A stretch of 64,000 bases of DNA from Fidelibacterota bacterium. GTDB lineage: Bacteria > Fidelibacterota > Marinisomatia > Marinisomatales > UBA2128. Both the position numbers and the translations under genes were made by a program. Location: the NCBI GenBank assembly GCA_046861645.1, contig JBHHUM010000001.1, forward strand, positions 27,379 to 91,378. Direction: 5' to 3'. Below, piece after piece: positions 1 to 11,710 of this stretch; position 1 is the first letter of the stretch, and every line of letters starts with the position of its first letter. The notes beneath the pieces are model-generated. The model had not been told where the DNA came from and made no database searches. It saw only the letters and a program-made list of their open reading frames with translations.

Positions 1-717
1 TTTGCCGATGTTATCAAAAAGTTCCAATAATTCGACAAATGTATTATCCCCACCAAGATAATCCCAAAACTGTTCACCAATTAAGAAATCTTCACCAGGT
101 TTTAACAGTCCTTGAAGTGTGAATCTTTCGTAAAGATCGGGATGATAAGGGTTATATGGAAAAGCCAAAAACACCTTCACATATTTCCTTCTTCTAGCAA
201 TCCATTCCAAGAGTTTTGCCTTTGATTTTGTGAATACATCAATATTTGGTTTAACGGTTTTTATTTCAAAATACTGTTCAATCCCGTTTCGTTTCATATA
301 AAAATCTGCTATACGACCTTCTTTTTGTACTTTACCATTTGAAGGATCTGCATTTAAAACTTCTTGGGTTTCTTTTTCAATATTTGATTCACGATCACCA
401 TTTCTTAATTCTCGAATTATATTATCAATTACAGATTTTTGATTTCGTGAAATAACTCCGCCAATATCATATTTTGTAAAACATTCTTCAGTGCTTTCAT
501 TCGTAATAATCTTTGACACATCTTCATAAATTGACATTCCAAGTGTTGTTGCAAGAGAATGAATAAAAGAATATGCTGCCACCTTTTCCTTGTCCTGCAT
601 TAACTTGACAAGAAATGGCATTGATGTGGATTCTCTTGCGTATCTTTGTAGTTTTGCATCTAATTTAGAGGACAGAAGATCAGTAATTAGTTGTTTTTGA
701 CCATTAGTTAAACTCAA
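1..717 (-). CDS. Type II restriction endonuclease, TdeIII-like PD-(D/E)XK family; C-terminus cut off by window edge
   Basis: Absent from the ORF track because it runs off the window. Manual minus-strand translation from TTG (717-715) gives MSLTNGQKQLITDLLSSKLDAKLQRYARESTSMPFLVKLMQDKEKVAAYSFIHSLATTLGMSIYE...GRIADFYMKRNGIEQYFEIKTVKPN...FLAFPYNPYHPDLYERFTLQGLL...EQFWDYLGGDNTFVELLELFDNIGK, open through position 1. It has a D...E-x-K core (ADF..FEIKT). The MPF/YSFIHSL/PYNPY/FWDYLGG blocks match my recollection of the TdeIII restriction-enzyme family. The start lies 1 nt after the methyltransferase stop (TGAtTTG), with AAGGG about 7 nt upstream, and an in-frame TGA at 738-736 closes the frame upstream. 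Confidence 0.6.
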   Translation of the reverse strand, partial: MSLTNGQKQLITDLLSSKLDAKLQRYARESTSMPFLVKLMQDKEKVAAYSFIHSLATTLGMSIYEDVSKIITNESTEECFTKYDIGGVISRNQKSVIDNIIRELRNGDRESNIEKETQEVLNADPSNGKVQKEGRIADFYMKRNGIEQYFEIKTVKPNIDVFTKSKAKLLEWIARRRKYVKVFLAFPYNPYHPDLYERFTLQGLLKPGEDFLIGEQFWDYLGGDNTFVELLELFDNIGK

Positions 718-718
718 A

Positions 719-2140
719 TCAGTTACCCTTTTTCTTCATATAAAAAATTGTTTCTTGATATGCATTATTCCCTTGTTCAGTTCTTTTTGTTACTGCACGA
801 TGATGCTCTTTTACAATTGTCAATCCACTTTTTTCTGCGATAGTAGGATAAAGGTTAAACCTATCATTTGCCACAATAAATATTTTAGCATCATCTTTCA
901 AATACTTATTCATATTGCTGAATACAGCAGATATTCCATTCACATAATTTTCTTTTGCCTTAATCGATTTTCCTGATTTTTTAGGACCAATTTCTTTATC
1001 ATCGTATCTTTTAATTCCAAATAATTCATAAGCGTAAATATGTTGTTCGTGATAATCAATTTGTCCCACATAAGGCGGGGAGGTATAAATACCATCGTAT
1101 TTTTTATTGCCAATCGGTGAATTTTTCAATTTTTCCAAAAGGTTGATTTTTGTTGAATCACCTTGTATAACTGAAATTGATCTATCCGATCGCAATTTAT
1201 TAAATTGTTTAATTCTTCTTACTGTGTCCATACCATAATTATGAATTTTCACTAAAAGTTGTTCAATAGGTTTACAGTATTTGTTATGTTTTCTGCACCA
1301 ATATTCTTTTCCCGGTTCAACTGGTTTCTTTGGAGTTGCTAAATCGTAATGAGGGACGAGTCTTGAAGAACGGGTTGCACGACTTAATAAAACTGATAGT
1401 AAATCCTGATAATAAAATTCTTTGATTAATCGTTTGTAATACATCATTTCAAAAAGCGTCCGTTCAGCAAACCAGGTTTTAAGATACTCACTTGTAACAC
1501 CAGCTAATAGAGATTTTTTTAGTTCATCCATTTTTTCTTCGGGAAAAAGTTGGATTTGTTTTGGGTCATTTGTTATCAAACGATTACTAAATCTTGTAAG
1601 ACGATTTTCTGCTTCTAACACTTCATTTTTTAATTTATATAAATCATATTTATTTGTTTTGACTTTTGCGATTCGACAATTGAATTCAGAAATATCAACA
1701 CCAATTGTATGAATTTTTAATTCGTTACCTTGGACAAGAGTTGTTCCTGAACCCATAAAGGGATCAAGAACAATTTCATTTTCTTTAAAATATTTGATGA
1801 GAAACCACTCTACTAATTGAGGAATAAATTTCCCCAAATATGGATGAAGTCGATGAACGTGTTTTGTCCGCTCACGTTCGGGAAGATTATAGAAACCGAG
1901 TTCTGCGTTTAAACCGGCTCGGTGGTGATGTGAGTTTCCTTGCTCAATTAGTTTAAGAAAGGTTTTTAATTCCTTCAAAGAAACTCGAAGTTCACCATTT
2001 TTGGCTTTTCTTTTGATAAGTTTACCATCAGGTGTGTATTTTCCAATCCGTTTGTAATCAATATAATAGCGAATATTGTGGACAGTTTTCCCAACTATCT
2101 CTGCCGCTTCTGAAATTGTTAAAAGGTCAGAATGAATCAT
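719..2140 (-). CDS. Site-specific DNA methyltransferase (N4-cytosine or N6-adenine class) with N-terminal helix-turn-helix domain
   Basis: 473-aa ORF. The N-terminus LLTISEAAEIVGKTVHNIRYYIDYKRI looks like a MerR/excisionase-type HTH. The SAM-binding motif I is VLDPFMGSGTT, preceded by HRLHPYLGKFIPQLVEWFL. Catalytic motif IV is TSPPYVGQIDY, about 220 aa downstream, so the order is motif I - target-recognition region - motif IV. SPPY favours N4-cytosine but is not decisive. It is translationally coupled to the downstream endonuclease. Confidence 0.85.
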   Translation of the reverse strand: MIHSDLLTISEAAEIVGKTVHNIRYYIDYKRIGKYTPDGKLIKRKAKNGELRVSLKELKTFLKLIEQGNSHHHRAGLNAELGFYNLPERERTKHVHRLHPYLGKFIPQLVEWFLIKYFKENEIVLDPFMGSGTTLVQGNELKIHTIGVDISEFNCRIAKVKTNKYDLYKLKNEVLEAENRLTRFSNRLITNDPKQIQLFPEEKMDELKKSLLAGVTSEYLKTWFAERTLFEMMYYKRLIKEFYYQDLLSVLLSRATRSSRLVPHYDLATPKKPVEPGKEYWCRKHNKYCKPIEQLLVKIHNYGMDTVRRIKQFNKLRSDRSISVIQGDSTKINLLEKLKNSPIGNKKYDGIYTSPPYVGQIDYHEQHIYAYELFGIKRYDDKEIGPKKSGKSIKAKENYVNGISAVFSNMNKYLKDDAKIFIVANDRFNLYPTIAEKSGLTIVKEHHRAVTKRTEQGNNAYQETIFYMKKKGN

Positions 2141-2228
2141 TAATTCTTCAATTTCCCTTTAAATCTACATTCCAAAGATAATAAAACCATTTGAATTAAG
2201 AAGTATCGTATCCTGAATTTTATAAAGA

Positions 2229-2297
2229 AATTTCTGGAAATATAACTCGTCAATAAATGGAAATATTTCCACTATATCACCCTTATAGACTGGAAAT
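2229..2297. promoter_or_regulatory. Candidate operator region: palindrome GGAAATATTTCC plus repeated TGGAAAT half-sites upstream of the HTH-methyltransferase
   Basis: There is a perfect 12-bp palindrome GGAAATATTTCC at 2259-2270. ATTTCtgGAAAT (5+2+5 inverted repeat) lies at 2229-2241. TGGAAAT occurs at 2235-2241, 2258-2264 and 2291-2297. On the minus strand the 12-bp palindrome lies just upstream of a TTGACG hexamer. Function is inferred only. Confidence 0.3.
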
Positions 2298-2404
2298 TAT
2301 TCTTTATAATATTATCCATTACTTGAAAAGAAGGAAAATATCCTGTAAGTTATCCATATATTTAATTAACTCCTCTATAATGATGAAATCTACCAGAATA
2401 GCAT

Positions 2405-3523
2405 TTGGAAAACAAGAAAAAAACCTTACCCCTGTACGCCCCTGCCTTGTCGGCAGACAGACAGCAGATGGGTAAATTCCCTCCAGACACTGAACTGTAC
2501 ACAGCACACAACGTCCTGCGGACATCCTATGGGGAGCTGATGGATCAGGTCCGGCAGGTACTGCGTTATCACCATTACGCCTACCGTACCGAGTTGACTT
2601 ATTGTAATTGGATTGTTCGCTATATAAAGTTCCATGGCAGCAAAAAGCATCCTCGTGATATGGGCAAGTGTGAAATTGAATTATATCTCCATCATCTTGC
2701 TGAGGATAAGGATGCTTCGGTGGCGACACAAAGGCAGGCTCACAATGCCATTATCTTTCTCTATGATCAAGTTCTTTGTTTTCCAGTCAGTGAATCTATT
2801 GAACCGGTCAAAGCAAAGCAGCAGCGTCATTTACCGGTTGTGATGACTCAAGAGGAAGTGAAGTTGGTTCTCAACCAGATGTAGAGGTATCATTTAATGA
2901 TGGCGAAGCTACTGTACGGAGGCGGTCTGCGGTTAATAGAGTGTATCCGACTGAGAATTGGAGATCTCGATTTTGAAAGGAACCGGATCAATGTCCGGGG
3001 TGCCAAAGGAGGTAAAAATCGTCTGACCTTATTCCCACAGTCAATCCAGGAGGAGTTACGAATTCATATAGCAAAAGTAAAACAATTACATGATCAGGAT
3101 TTAGCTGAAGGATACGGCAGTACCTATCTTCCTCATGCGTTAGCTAAAAAGTACCCCTACGCTGCCAAAGAGTTGACTTGGCAGTATCTGTTCCCAGCAA
3201 AAAAATTAAGTGAAGATCCACGAACAGGAATCATACGTCGGCACCATGTAATGGAATCCGGGTTACAAAAAGCCGTCATGGCTGCAGTGTCTCGAGCGGG
3301 CATTACAAAACGAGTTAGCTGTCATACTTTTCGTCACTGTTTTGCTACTCACTTATTAGAAAATGGTGTCAATATTCATGCTGTCCAAGAGTTGATGGGG
3401 CATAAAAGTATAAAGACAACTGAAATTTATACTCATGTCATGGAAAAGGAACTTGAGGAAACTCGCAGTCCTTTGGATATACTGGGAGAAAGAGAAAACG
3501 ATATACTTGACGAGAAGAAATAG
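2405..3523 (+). pseudogene. intI: Integron-type integrase (IntI, tyrosine recombinase) interrupted by a single in-frame TAG at 2882-2884
   Basis: ORFs 2405-2884 and 2897-3523 are in the same frame (2897-2405=492). They are joined by TAG plus 4 sense codons: ...VKLVLNQM*RYHLMMAKLLYGGGLRLIE... The catalytic set is present: R (GGGLRLIE), K (GAKGGKNR), H-x-x-R (CHTFRHCFATHLL), H (LMGH) and Y (EIYTHV). The IntI-specific insertion LPHALAKKYPYAAKELTWQYLFPAKKLSEDPRTGIIRRHHV is present (compare IntI1 ALERKYPRAG..W.WVF....STDPRSGVVRRHH). The likely true start is ATG 2468 or ATG 2540 (MDQVRQVLRYHHYAYRTE...), giving about 326-350 aa. Confidence 0.85.
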
Positions 3524-3935
3524 CCTTCCAGAAAGATAAGAACATACCTGTCTTATTAAGATTGTCACCTGTCTACCACCAACTTATACTTGAACCATAA
3601 TTTTCCTAATTTAGAGGATTTTCAAGATTACTTAATCAGGTTAATCATTGTAGTCCTTGTCATCCCTGTCTATCGGTAGGCAGGAGGGTTCAGGCAGTTT
3701 GAGGATTATCATAGAGCTGGCTATTTCGACCTGGCAGGACTTTTCCGATCGGCCTGGTTTGCTGCCATTGTAACCCGTTTACGTTTTCTTTACGACTGAC
3801 GGGTTGCCACCAGCTAACTGCCAACTATCAACTGTACTGGTTGTTGTCTTCTCTATAATTCCCAATGTCAATATATCTTGCACCTCTCTGACGCTCTCGA
3901 CTAAATTTGTTAGCTTTTCTCGAAACGGAAACGGT

Positions 3936-5274: not shown

Positions 5275-6000
5275 TTGGCTACAAAAATAAGATTGAAAAG
5301 ATTAGGACGACGAAACAGACCTTTTTTCCGAGTAATCGTTATTGATTCACGTAAACGTAGAGATGGCGCTGCTATCGAAGAAGTAGGCTGGTATGATCCC
5401 ATTAAGCAAGATAGTAAGAATTACAAGCTGGAAGCAGAACGTATCCTCCACTGGCTGAATAATGGGGCACAACCAACGTTTACCGTACGCAATTTAATGA
5501 AAAAGGAAGGACTCCTTTACCGCTGGCATTTAATGCGTCAGGGTTTAGATGAGAAAACTATCGACCAGGAGATGCAGAAGTGGGCGATGGATCGCGAAAT
5601 TCGTTTGAAGGAGAAAGCTGAAAAAACTCCGGAAAAGTCGAAGAAGAAGACTGATATTGAACCAACGGCTGAAGAGACAGTTGCAGAGGCAGAAGCAGCT
5701 GTGGAAACTGAATCAAAGGGTGAGGGTGTATCTGAGGCTGAGGAGGAAATAGAAGAAGTAACACCTGAAGATGAAAGTAAGACAGAAGCAGAACCGGAGT
5801 CTGAAGCAGAGGCAGGAGCTGAGTCAGAGGGTGAGGGTGAAGCTAAGGCTGAGGAGAAGATAGAAGCAGCAACGACTGAAGATGAAAGTAAAGTAGTGCC
5901 AGAGGCGGTATCAGAAACAGAAGAAGAGGATGAAGGTGCAACTGAAACCGAAACAGAAAATAATTCCAACGACACTGACGAAAAAATTAAGGAAGAATAA
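5275..6000 (+). CDS. rpsP: 30S ribosomal protein S16 with a long acidic C-terminal extension
   Basis: MATKIRLKRLGRRNRPFFRVIVIDSRKRRDGAAIEEVGWYDP is the S16 core. It has a TTG start with a GAGGAG RBS 6 nt upstream. The product is 241 aa against about 80-90 aa for typical S16, and the tail is rich in E/A/T/S. Confidence 0.9.
   Translation: MATKIRLKRLGRRNRPFFRVIVIDSRKRRDGAAIEEVGWYDPIKQDSKNYKLEAERILHWLNNGAQPTFTVRNLMKKEGLLYRWHLMRQGLDEKTIDQEMQKWAMDREIRLKEKAEKTPEKSKKKTDIEPTAEETVAEAEAAVETESKGEGVSEAEEEIEEVTPEDESKTEAEPESEAEAGAESEGEGEAKAEEKIEAATTEDESKVVPEAVSETEEEDEGATETETENNSNDTDEKIKEE
5718..5898 (+). repeat. Internal 111-bp-period duplication inside the S16 tail (cores 5718-5787 and 5829-5898)
   Basis: GGGTGAGGGTG...GCTGAGGAG...ATAGAAG...CTGAAGATGAAAGTAA occurs twice, 111 bp (37 codons) apart. 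I count about 56 of 68 positions identical by manual alignment. The protein units are GEGVSEAEEEIEEVTPEDESK and GEGEAKAEEKIEAATTEDESK. Confidence 0.6.
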
Positions 6001-8450: not shown

Positions 8451-9827
8451 ATGAAACTACAAGAAATTCCATCGGTCAATACTATTTTGGAAAGCCTTGA
8501 TTTATCTACAATCACTGTACCTCGAAGTTTCGTCACCGACTTGATTCGCCTGGAACTTTCAATGCTGCGCCGAGAAGTTGGATTGGGGAAGATAAGGAAG
8601 ACTCGCAGTGAATTAATTGAGCAAGTCCAACAGAATGTAATTCATGCCACTGAGAAAAGCCTAAAGCAGGTTATTAATGGGACGGGAATTGTCCTGCATA
8701 CAGGTCTTGGACGTGCGCCTCTTGACCAGCAAGTCATTCTGCAATCGGTCAAACGGGTAGCTGGTTATACCAATCTGGAACTTGATCTCGAAACAGGGAG
8801 AAGAGGTGAACGACTTAATCACGTTGAGGCTCTACTTAATTCCCTCGCGGGTTCAGAAGCCTCCCTATTAGTTAATAACAATGCTGCTGCTGTACTTTTG
8901 GCACTTAATACCGTGGCGGAGGGGCAGGAAGTTATCATCTCCCGGGGGCAGTTGGTGGAAATTGGAGGTTCTTTCAGGATTCCAGATGTAATCATCAAAA
9001 GTGGAGCCATTCTTAAAGAAGTCGGGACTACAAACCGTACTCATGAAAAAGATTATAGACAAGCAATTACTCCTCAGACTGGTGCAATCCTTTATGCCCA
9101 CACCAGCAATTATCGGATTGAAGGATTTACTCAAGAAGTAGTTATCTTCGATTTAGCCCGGCTTGCAAGAAAAAAACACCTACCTCTGATTGTTGATTTA
9201 GGTAGTGGGGCTCTCTTCGATTTGATGGAAATCAACCTTCCCTCAGAACCAGTAGTGAAAGAAGTTTTAAAGCAAGGTGCTCATCTGGTTACATTCTCAG
9301 GTGATAAGCTGTTGGGAGGTCCACAGGCGGGTCTCGTCTGTGGTCAAAAGGTGATCGTAAAGAAGTTGCTGAAAAATCCTCTTTATCGAGCCCTCAGATG
9401 TGATAAAATGACTTTAGGCTTAATGGAGGAGACATTGAGAAATTATCAGGATGTTCCTACCTTGAGTAAGAATTTAACCTATCGCTTGTTGAAGACCAAT
9501 CGATCAAGTTTAATTAGACGAGCTAAACGAATAGTGGATAGTTTACCTAAACCAGTCGTACAGCAGCTTGGTATCACGGTAGTAACTTCTCAAGCGGAGG
9601 CTGGAAGTGGTTCCTTACCTACAGAGACCATGGAAAGTGCCGCTCTGCAATTTAATAGTAAAGCCATAAAACCTTCATTACTGGCAGCCGCGTTCCGGCG
9701 AGGAACTCCGCCGGTTTTGGGCTACATTTCTGATAACAAATTCTTCCTGGATATGAAAGCTATCTTACCCTCACAAACCAGACCTTTATCAGCTTTTATA
9801 AAAGCTGTTTTTAATGAAGTCTCATAA
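8451..9827 (+). CDS. selA: L-seryl-tRNA(Sec) selenium transferase SelA
   Basis: INGTGIVLHTGLGRAPL, NNNAAAVLLAL and the PLP-lysine region FSGDKLLGGPQAG are SelA hallmarks. It overlaps selB by 1 nt (taATG). Confidence 0.9.
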   Translation: MKLQEIPSVNTILESLDLSTITVPRSFVTDLIRLELSMLRREVGLGKIRKTRSELIEQVQQNVIHATEKSLKQVINGTGIVLHTGLGRAPLDQQVILQSVKRVAGYTNLELDLETGRRGERLNHVEALLNSLAGSEASLLVNNNAAAVLLALNTVAEGQEVIISRGQLVEIGGSFRIPDVIIKSGAILKEVGTTNRTHEKDYRQAITPQTGAILYAHTSNYRIEGFTQEVVIFDLARLARKKHLPLIVDLGSGALFDLMEINLPSEPVVKEVLKQGAHLVTFSGDKLLGGPQAGLVCGQKVIVKKLLKNPLYRALRCDKMTLGLMEETLRNYQDVPTLSKNLTYRLLKTNRSSLIRRAKRIVDSLPKPVVQQLGITVVTSQAEAGSGSLPTETMESAALQFNSKAIKPSLLAAAFRRGTPPVLGYISDNKFFLDMKAILPSQTRPLSAFIKAVFNEVS

Positions 9828-11710
9828 TGATGTCTCAAGTCATAATTGGCACCGCCGGACATATCGATCATGGTAAAACAGCTCTGGTTAAAGCGTTAAC
9901 CGGTACAGATACTGATCGATTACCGGAAGAGCAACGTCGGGGAATGACTATCGACCTCGGTTTTGCGTTCCTGACTGATCATATCACAATCATTGATGTT
10001 CCTGGGCATGAAAAGTTTATCCGTAATATGGTAGCTGGAGTTAGTACAGTGGACATTGCTTTACTGGCCATTGCTGCCGATGATGGTATCATGCCCCAGA
10101 CCCGGGAACATCTTGACATCCTGCAACTCTTAAAAGTGCAGAAAGGGTGTGTAGCAATAACAAAATGTGATCTATCTGAAAGCAAGGAGTGGCTTTATTT
10201 ATTGGAAGAAGATATTAAAGATTATATAGGTGGTACCACTCTAAAAGAAATGCCCATCGTCAGGACATCTGCTGTCACTGGGGAGGGTATTACCGATCTT
10301 AAAAAGTACCTTTTGAATCTTTCCAATCAGGTGCAAGCTCGAAGTGACCGTGGGTTTTTCCGGCAATCCATTGATCGAGTGTTCACCATGAAAGGTTTTG
10401 GTACGGTGGTTACTGGCACTGTTATCAGTGGTTCTGCCACCGTCGGAGATTCTATCGAGATTGTGCCTGGTGAAGTAACAGCTAAAATCAGGAGTTTGCA
10501 ATCCCACGGCAAAGATGTTAAAATGGTGCAGGTGGGCGATAGATCGGCTGTGAATCTGAGTGGGGTTGATCGTCAATCGTTGAAACGAGGTTCGCAAATC
10601 GTCTCAGACGGTTTTCTCAAAGCTGTAAAATCATTTGGAGCCCATATCTCTCTGACTTTAAATACGTCCCGTAAATTGAAACATGAGCAACGAGTTCGTG
10701 TTCATATTGGTACGGACGAGATCATGGGTCGGGTCTACATTGTGAGTTCTAATCGCCACAAAAGTATTCAGGGTGGAGAAGAGGCTACGGTTCTTATCCG
10801 CCTGGAAAAGCCAGCTCCATTAGCTATGGATGATCCCTTAATCATTCGCCTCTATTCTCCACCGGAAACTCTGGGCGGTGGGACGGTCATCGATACCTAT
10901 CCACCATTCAGATGGAAAGATACCAGAAAGTGGTTACAAGTTCTTGATGAATCTTCAAACGATATTCGCCCAACTCTTTTTTTCAAGCAGGATAAATCCG
11001 CTCCCAAAACATTGTTACAGTTGTGCCAGAGATTTCAAATGGGCTCAGATCAATTGCAAGCATATCTAGAGACATTGGATTTAATTCATTTTGGTCCCGA
11101 ACGCGATCCTTTTATTGCACTTGCAGATGATATTGAAGAACAAAAGTTGGCGTTGTTGGATGTTGTGAACACCTATCACGAACAGAAAGTTTATCGTTTG
11201 GGTATACCCAGGGATGAACTCCGACAGAAATTGGGTTATAGCGAAGCACTTTTTGATTTTCTCCTAAGTGAACTAGTGGGAAAGAAGGAGTTGGAGATCA
11301 GAGATGGACTTGTCAGGGCCAGTGGGTATGTAATGACACTCAGTGAAAGTGACCAGGTTCAGGTTCAGAAGGTTTTCAATAAGCTTCAGAAATATGGTAC
11401 TACCCCACCAGTGGTTATTGATTTAGCACGAGAACTGGGATTGTCTGAAAAAAAGGTCCAGGAAATTTTACATGTTTTGAAAAATGAGCAACGGGTAACA
11501 GATATCTCTAGGAATTTATGGTACAGTACCAAAGTCCTTTCTGAATTGGAGAGGACAATTCGAAAATATTTTACTACTCACCAAACTATGTCAGTCCTTG
11601 ATTTCAAGAGTCTCACCAAGACCACACGTAAACATGCGATTCCATTGCTTGAGTATTTAGATCGTCATGAAATAACGCTTCGTGAGGGTGACAGGAGAGT
11701 TTTAGCATGA
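9827..11710 (+). CDS. selB: Selenocysteine-specific translation elongation factor SelB
   Basis: It has an EF-Tu-like G domain ([31 protein letters not shown]) and a long C-terminal winged-helix extension. It is 627 aa and lies immediately after selA. Confidence 0.9.

Follow-up and report, generated by a model that had tools for sequence, protein, structure and literature searches.

Nearly one third of the integron integrase (intI) genes in genomes are pseudogenes that carry a stop codon within the gene or else a frameshift, usually of recent origin; intI2 also has an internal stop, and its suppression restores activity (Nemergut et al., PMC2426708). Small type II restriction-modification systems have been reported as integron cassettes (10.1101/2024.07.02.601686). 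Here we describe a locus at which an interrupted intI gene and such a cassette lie side by side, in a 64,000-nucleotide stretch of the genome of a marine Fidelibacterota bacterium (contig JBHHUM010000001.1 of assembly GCA_046861645.1, positions 27,379 to 91,378), which we refer to as the window. Positions 1 to 3523 of the window very probably represent the integrase end of a chromosomal integron situated upstream of ffh, the intI gene of which (2405–3523, plus strand) appears to have been inactivated recently by a CAG to TAG change at codon 160.

The closest described relatives are integrases from metagenome-assembled genomes (MAGs) of Marinimicrobia, Neomarinimicrobiota and Fidelibacterota (proteins P0001–P0004; loci L011–L019). 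These share 74–78% identity with the window gene, an attI site ending in TATTGAC.AGTTA and the classic layout, in which the cassettes diverge from intI and core genes occupy its opposite flank; they differ in being uninterrupted, in having CAG at the position of the stop codon, in their ATG starts and in their chromosomal positions. VchIntIA (IntI4) of the Vibrio cholerae superintegron aligns over its full length, including the catalytic residues and the additional domain, but is a distant homolog, and the Vibrio enzyme is intact and active. IntI1 is 42% identical and has the same domain order. The intI pseudogenes of Xanthomonas, Shewanella and others, together with intI2, resemble the window gene in that intI carries an internal stop while attI and cassettes persist. 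The stop of intI2 is an ochre codon at position 179. It is fixed across class 2 and lies elsewhere in the protein, whereas the stop described here is found in one lineage and in no sampled relative. The cassette resembles the defence cassettes of sedentary chromosomal integrons in being a compact two-gene type II unit that recurs in another array (locus L021); here, however, it occupies the first position beside what would be a dead integrase, and its attC lies beyond the window.

One integrase gene interrupted by one stop codon

Two open reading frames (ORFs) on the plus strand, 2405–2884 and 2897–3523, lie in a common frame that is broken solely by the TAG at 2882–2884. The first starts with TTG and ends at this TAG, and the second ends at the TAG at 3521–3523. 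The translation of 2405–3523 contains LPVVMTQEEVKLVLNQM immediately before the stop and RYHLMMAKLLYGGGLRLIE immediately after it, with one internal stop and no frameshift. Counted from TTG 2405 and including the internal TAG, the frame has 372 codons; an earlier reading of the DNA from its sequence only had put the protein at about 326–350 residues, which is too short. For profile searches both parts of intI were joined, with X at the position of the stop. With TIGR02249, the IntI model (curated cut-off 265), the joined protein scored 414.7 bits, aligning from position 1 to 314 of 315 and in a single stretch across the stop. Because this alignment is unbroken, the two ORFs are not a chance juxtaposition. 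We conclude, as the sequence-only reading had proposed, that 2405–3523 is one integron integrase gene and not two genes.

Pfam domains PF13495 and PF00589 were both found in the joined protein, and the best match of known structure was VchIntIA (PDB 2a3v, E=1.8e-84). In a 351-residue construct PF13495 covers residues 24–103 and PF00589 starts at residue 125, around 13 residues before the stop. The upstream fragment (2405–2884, plus strand, 159 residues) comprises the N-terminal SAM-like DNA-binding domain and the first ~14 residues of the catalytic domain. The downstream fragment (2897–3523, plus strand, 208 residues) holds all of the catalytic residues (R, K, H-x-x-R, H, Y) as well as the IntI-specific insertion. 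The catalytic set is complete, with the motifs GLRLIE, KGGK, HTFRH, GH and IYTHV kept in comparison with 2a3v, IntI1 and ten close homologs. The additional domain of IntI proteins, about 35 residues between patches II and III that are not found in Xer or phage integrases, is present as ALAKKYPYAAKELTWQYLFPAKKLSEDPRTGIIRRHHV and aligns without gaps to the corresponding segments of VchIntIA and IntI1; TIGR02249 and this direct alignment were used in place of the IntegronFinder intI_Cterm profile. The alignment with 2a3v takes in the IntI-specific segment, from ALAKKYPYAAKELTWQYLFP through to RRHHV, residue for residue, together with all catalytic residues. Both the full catalytic set and the extra segment had been predicted from the sequence, and the two alignments bear this out. 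The gene scores 285.4 bits with the class 1 equivalog model NF011946, below its cut-off of 435, and is therefore not a class 1 integrase.

The additional length of this intI is accounted for by an N-terminal extension in common with P0001 (361 residues) and by an insertion of 12–14 residues unique to this gene. We note that the insertion corresponds to an in-frame segment of 36–42 nt at around 2492–2533 of the window (LYTAHNVLRTSYGE) in the non-conserved N-terminus, and that it is absent from the ten close homologs.

Ancestry of the stop codon and selection on intI

A search of 5.8 billion proteins gave as best matches four intact IntI proteins, P0001–P0004, of 361, 341, 322 and 336 residues and with 78, 76, 74 and 74% identity respectively; two of these carry the name Candidatus Marinimicrobia / Neomarinimicrobiota. 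When the codons were aligned, all four of these nearest relatives had CAG (Gln) at the position of the premature TAG (2882–2884, plus strand, codon 160). At the protein level the residue facing the stop is Gln in eight of ten homologs and Lys in the other two. The sequence-only reading had placed the stop opposite the Glu of the LEGEHRL segment of IntI1 and suggested a GAG to TAG change. The alignment is indeed observed, the stop facing the first Glu of that segment (and the Asp in LEIVDPKHQL of VchIntIA), but the proposed origin does not hold, since the four nearest relatives have CAG and IntI1, at 42% identity, is too distant to reveal the ancestral codon. A single C-to-T transition, CAG to TAG, is thus the most parsimonious account of the lesion.

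The gene had also been described as otherwise fully intact. This is correct insofar as there is no other stop or frameshift, but puts the case a little too strongly. Translation begins at a TTG codon, whereas ATG is used in eight related loci. The codon following the stop is AGG (Arg), compared with GGG or GGA in the relatives, at a position where Gly is conserved in at least 90% of homologs. Of the 136 columns that are at least 95% conserved, 7 are substituted in this gene (6 if the TTG start is left out); the mean in 119 intact homologs is 1.5, and the gene ties for the maximum among the 120 homologs.

Decay is nonetheless not detectable. The pairwise ratio of nonsynonymous to synonymous substitution (dN/dS) between intI and its relatives is 0.07–0.11, and that of the intact relatives among themselves 0.06–0.11. 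Because the two ranges match, the inactivation looks recent, and purifying selection appears to have acted on the gene throughout nearly its whole past, although the clock is a weak one. A relative rate comparison with P0002 as outgroup counted 40 unique amino-acid changes in this gene and 15 in its sister P0001. We have discounted this excess as a sign of decay; it is matched by a synonymous branch that is also about twice as long, with omega staying at around 0.1 in a three-taxon decomposition of the pairwise distances.

Exact-product look-ups of the methylase (see below) and of the N-terminal intI fragment gave no match. Scans of genome contigs and metagenome contigs with the repaired protein returned only distant IntI loci of at most 65% identity, and no near-identical or orthologous allele.

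The attI site, its cassette and the ffh locus

The sequence-only reading took the gene for an intI without an array. This does not hold, as attI lies directly upstream, together with at least one cassette in the form of a restriction-modification operon. The region between intI and the first cassette (2246–2404, minus strand) contains attI and the divergent promoter region and is conserved with the DNA upstream of intI in L011–L015 and L017–L019. The attI core site, GTTATAT, is located at 2240–2246 (minus strand), with the crossover between G2246 and T2245 and variable junctions after GTTA. Some 160 nt upstream of intI are conserved up to TATTGAC.AGTTA, beyond which all six loci that reach this point (the window, L011, L012, L013, L015 and L019) diverge. 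Written with a slash at the junction, the window has GTTAT/ATTTCC, L011 GTTAG/AATGA, L012 GTTAG/CACAAC and L013 GTTAT/GTTTCT; the junctions of L015 and L019 read GTTATATGTC and GTTATGTGGC. The metagenomic contigs L011, L012 and L013 encode identical IntI proteins (P0002) and place the gene beside aspS and the ATP synthase operon, with three different DNAs right after the GTTA of attI. Variable junctions next to an identical IntI have the signature of cassette exchange at the attI core site, and they are evidence that cassettes are still being turned over in a sister lineage. The first "cassette" of L011 is a gene of more than 1015 codons. L015, from a Neomarinimicrobiota MAG, has the complete classic structure: around ten recognisable attC sites and toxin-antitoxin cassettes diverge from intI, whose opposite flank is occupied by core genes. 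Scans for promoters and terminators gave no useful information.

The cassette at the attI of the window begins with a leader of 105 nt (2141–2245, minus strand) between the crossover and the methylase ATG at 2140. The methylase gene (719–2140, minus strand) encodes a DNA methyltransferase of 473 residues (PF01555, N6_N4_Mtase, E=1.3e-18). It is followed by the first 239 codons of a TdeIII/HinfI-type type II endonuclease gene (1–717, minus strand; PF09520, RE_TdeIII, 184 bits, profile positions 2–242 of 242), which runs off the left end of the window. The endonuclease gene starts 1 nt after the methylase stop, the arrangement also seen in L021 and L022. Positions 1–2140 of the window are fully coding, and the G+C content of the cassette is 32%, as against ~42% for the rest of the window, where core genes follow closely on one another on the plus strand.

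The methylase is 86% identical to P0129 of L021 (GCA_006240825.1), which is accompanied by the same endonuclease and lies inside an array with an intact intI of 339 residues. BLAST aligned window positions 2197 to 13 with the L021/L022 cassette at 82.6% nucleotide identity. At the attI junction of the window, TTGACGAG is followed by TTATATTTCCAG; in L021 the end of the preceding attC, TTTTTCCG, is followed by the cassette start TTATATTTCCGG. Past the G of the crossover the cassette begins with TTATATTTCC in both. The restriction-modification unit of L021 is then followed by its own attC (R'' ATAACC, R' GTTAGCT), the bottom strand of which folds (z = -2.2). Since the unit in the window begins exactly at the attI crossover and its homolog in L021 is flanked by attC sites and has the same start, we regard the restriction-modification operon as most probably a genuine mobile cassette inserted at attI. 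No attC was observed within the window, for which no attC covariance model was built. We note that genes for a protein-kinase-like protein, a VWA protein and a PP2C phosphatase occupy 4745–7799 of L021, between its first cassette and the restriction-modification unit; this three-gene unit may be a cassette of several genes with a role in defence or signalling.

The Ffh protein of the window is 100% identical to a protein of the NCBI entry "MAG: Fidelibacterota bacterium". The nearest other genomes (Ffh 81% identical; Candidatus Marinimicrobia, L024–L029) keep the gene order ffh-rpsP-trmD-rplS-MFS-selA-selB-mutS. Upstream of ffh these genomes contain no integron, and a gene for a secreted LTD/Por-tail protein is found there instead; the comparison of orthologous loci that had been proposed as a way of finding an uninterrupted allele consequently yields none in the genomes nearest by Ffh. 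Homology between the window and the ffh loci L024–L029 resumes only at ~3871. Related intI genes occupy other chromosomal sites, next to aspS/ATP synthase, yebC-ruvCA and dctP. Because relatives syntenic at ffh are free of the integron and related intI genes are sited elsewhere, the comparison indicates that the integron is a lineage-specific acquisition at the position upstream of ffh.

The spacer that separates intI from the promoter region of ffh (3524–3870) has no counterpart in relatives without the integron and holds a hairpin, CCTGTCTATCGGTAGGCAGG, at 3665–3684. It resembles a hairpin-forming sequence, CCTGCCTTGTCGGCAGACAGA, in the 5′ coding extension of intI (at about 2443–2463 of the window; 4969–4989 in L019). 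This extension, with CCTGCCTTGTCGGCAGACAGA, is common to P0001 and L019 and absent from P0002 and P0004. The hairpin pattern has one exact match in the window, with 0.02 expected, and might represent either a regulatory site or a short element that has been inserted. Further downstream rpsP (S16, 5275–6000), with 241 codons in total, encodes a long, acidic and repetitive C-terminal tail and contains two internal repeats of 95 nt that are 80% identical (5686–5780 and 5797–5891); the corresponding ORF in L024–L029 is longer, at 429–452 residues.

Weighing the alternatives

On the reading that intI was recently inactivated within a chromosomal integron, translation would stop after the N-terminal DNA-binding domain and no full-length recombinase would be made. 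The resident IntI could in that case neither excise, capture nor shuffle cassettes at attI any longer, and the restriction-modification operon would be frozen as the first cassette, in a position to be read from the Pc promoter.

It is unlikely that the gene is intact in the organism, or in the majority of its cells, and that the TAG is instead an error of sequencing or of the consensus, or a polymorphism of a minority or of one strain that was fixed in the assembly by chance. In favour of such an account, the DNA comes from a metagenome-assembled genome and the remainder of intI is under purifying selection. The TAG was compared with a second assembly, that of SRR29324593 in Logan. Over window positions 2639–3730 (1092 nt) its contig SRR29324593_3102253 (locus L001) shows 100% identity, with the same TAG and no mismatch around it, and passes the site of the stop unbroken; the exact 208-residue downstream product has been called on it. 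Between other SRR29324593 contigs and the window there are 8 single-nucleotide polymorphisms (SNPs) within the methylase gene, and a further 9 over the 11.5 kb downstream. These differences show strain heterogeneity, which speaks for a polymorphism, yet because of them the window and the Logan contigs are two assemblies and not one consensus. The identical TAG came from two different assemblers. This argues against an assembler error at the TAG, although it does not substitute for read-level counts. The lesion is moreover a clean transition beside a second lineage-specific change (GGG/GGA to AGG), which is more like mutation than error.

The same contigs permit two further observations. All 8 differences in the methylase gene, relative to contig L020 (458–2296), fall within a 240-nt stretch (window 1706–1943), and this clustering suggests that the cassette varies between strains of the sampled population or contains a patch of recombination. 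The SRR29324593 contigs cover 458–2296, 2639–3730 and 3732 onward, and thus break at both edges of intI (~2296–2639 and 3730). The breaks, a point in favour of an error or a polymorphism at this gene, hint at graph branching, from variants or repeats, at the boundaries of the integron platform in the SRR29324593 sample.

A second possibility concerns not whether intI is silent but why. Excision of an addictive restriction-modification cassette would expose the chromosome to leftover endonuclease (post-segregational killing), and this could have favoured a silent intI, such that the stop would have been selected and not be mere decay. More speculatively, the nonsense allele and the weakened TTG start would together form an adaptive and potentially reversible off-switch, as one T-to-C change restores Gln; in a rarer variant of the idea the two fragments, or a read-through product, would keep low recombinase activity. 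We consider selection for the stop improbable. The homologous restriction-modification cassette of L021 occurs with an intact intI, and cassette-driven loss of the integrase is thus not a general rule.

An active recombinase despite the TAG, by read-through or suppression or as a split enzyme with the 208-residue fragment re-initiated at ATG 2897, appears very improbable. All catalytic residues are encoded by the downstream ORF, an ATG lies 12 nt past the stop with GAGG at 2885–2888, no further decay of intI is seen, and intI2 provides a precedent for a long-lived intI that contains a stop and regains activity by suppression (PMC2426708). The stop lies inside the catalytic domain, however, with PF00589 starting ~13 residues upstream of it, and splitting the enzyme here would cut a folded domain; we know of no two-piece IntI that functions. 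Because few start sites of this genome have a Shine-Dalgarno motif (13 of 49 crude start sites), the GAGG means little. No relative conserves the stop, unlike that of intI2.

Recoding of TAG was rejected on the evidence of the window, whether as pyrrolysine, under genetic code 15 or by conserved read-through. The window has 57 stop-to-stop frames with a length of 150 codons or more; TGA ends 25 of them, TAA 21 and TAG 11, and the other long coding frames of the window, rpoB and rpoC included, contain no in-frame TAG. Among the five tRNAs of the window none has a CUA anticodon, so that no suppressor tRNA is encoded there, and an Rfam scan of the window found only tRNAs. TAG is thus an ordinary stop in the window, and the relatives have CAG. 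Downstream of ffh-rpsP-trmD-rplS the window also encodes selA (8451–9827, PF03841) and selB (9827–11710, with SelB winged-helix domains). Given the presence of both genes, the host has the machinery for recoding TGA as selenocysteine, a matter separate from the TAG of intI.

Finally, a XerC/XerD-like or phage-type tyrosine recombinase is refuted, in agreement with the sequence-only reading: although PF00589 and PF13495 are common to Xer proteins, the joined translation falls far below the cut-offs of the Xer models (XerD 136.8 against 329.6; XerC 130 against 335.15; XerA 165.6 against 220) while it exceeds that of TIGR02249, the insertion that aligns to VchIntIA and IntI1 is found only in IntI, and the adjoining attI has variable cassette junctions.

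Several points nevertheless weigh against our preferred reading of a recently inactivated intI. The CAG ancestor is inferred from homologs that are only 74–78% identical, and the databases searched hold no intact allele of the same lineage. The values of dS are 1.0–2.2, near or past saturation, so that the dN/dS test is poorly suited to dating the inactivation. SRR29324593 probably represents the same sample or a sister of it, and support for the TAG comes from assemblies only. The last ~25 codons of the cassette, its attC and any further array lie to the left of position 1. Loss of recombinase activity is inferred, as are the age of the event in absolute terms and expression of the cassette from Pc.

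As it stands, the locus fits known patterns. An interrupted intI is a common and well-documented fate of the gene, which will not surprise a specialist and leaves knowledge of integrons unchanged. In annotations the two "recombinase" ORFs are best combined and flagged as one intI pseudogene, and the restriction-modification genes marked as a cassette at an intact attI. To our knowledge there is no cultured genetic system for the Fidelibacterota/Marinimicrobia. For this group the window would provide a clean and datable example of integron shut-down, by one transition and with no further decay, and a concrete locus at which to ask whether addictive cassettes such as restriction-modification systems favour the loss of the integrase.

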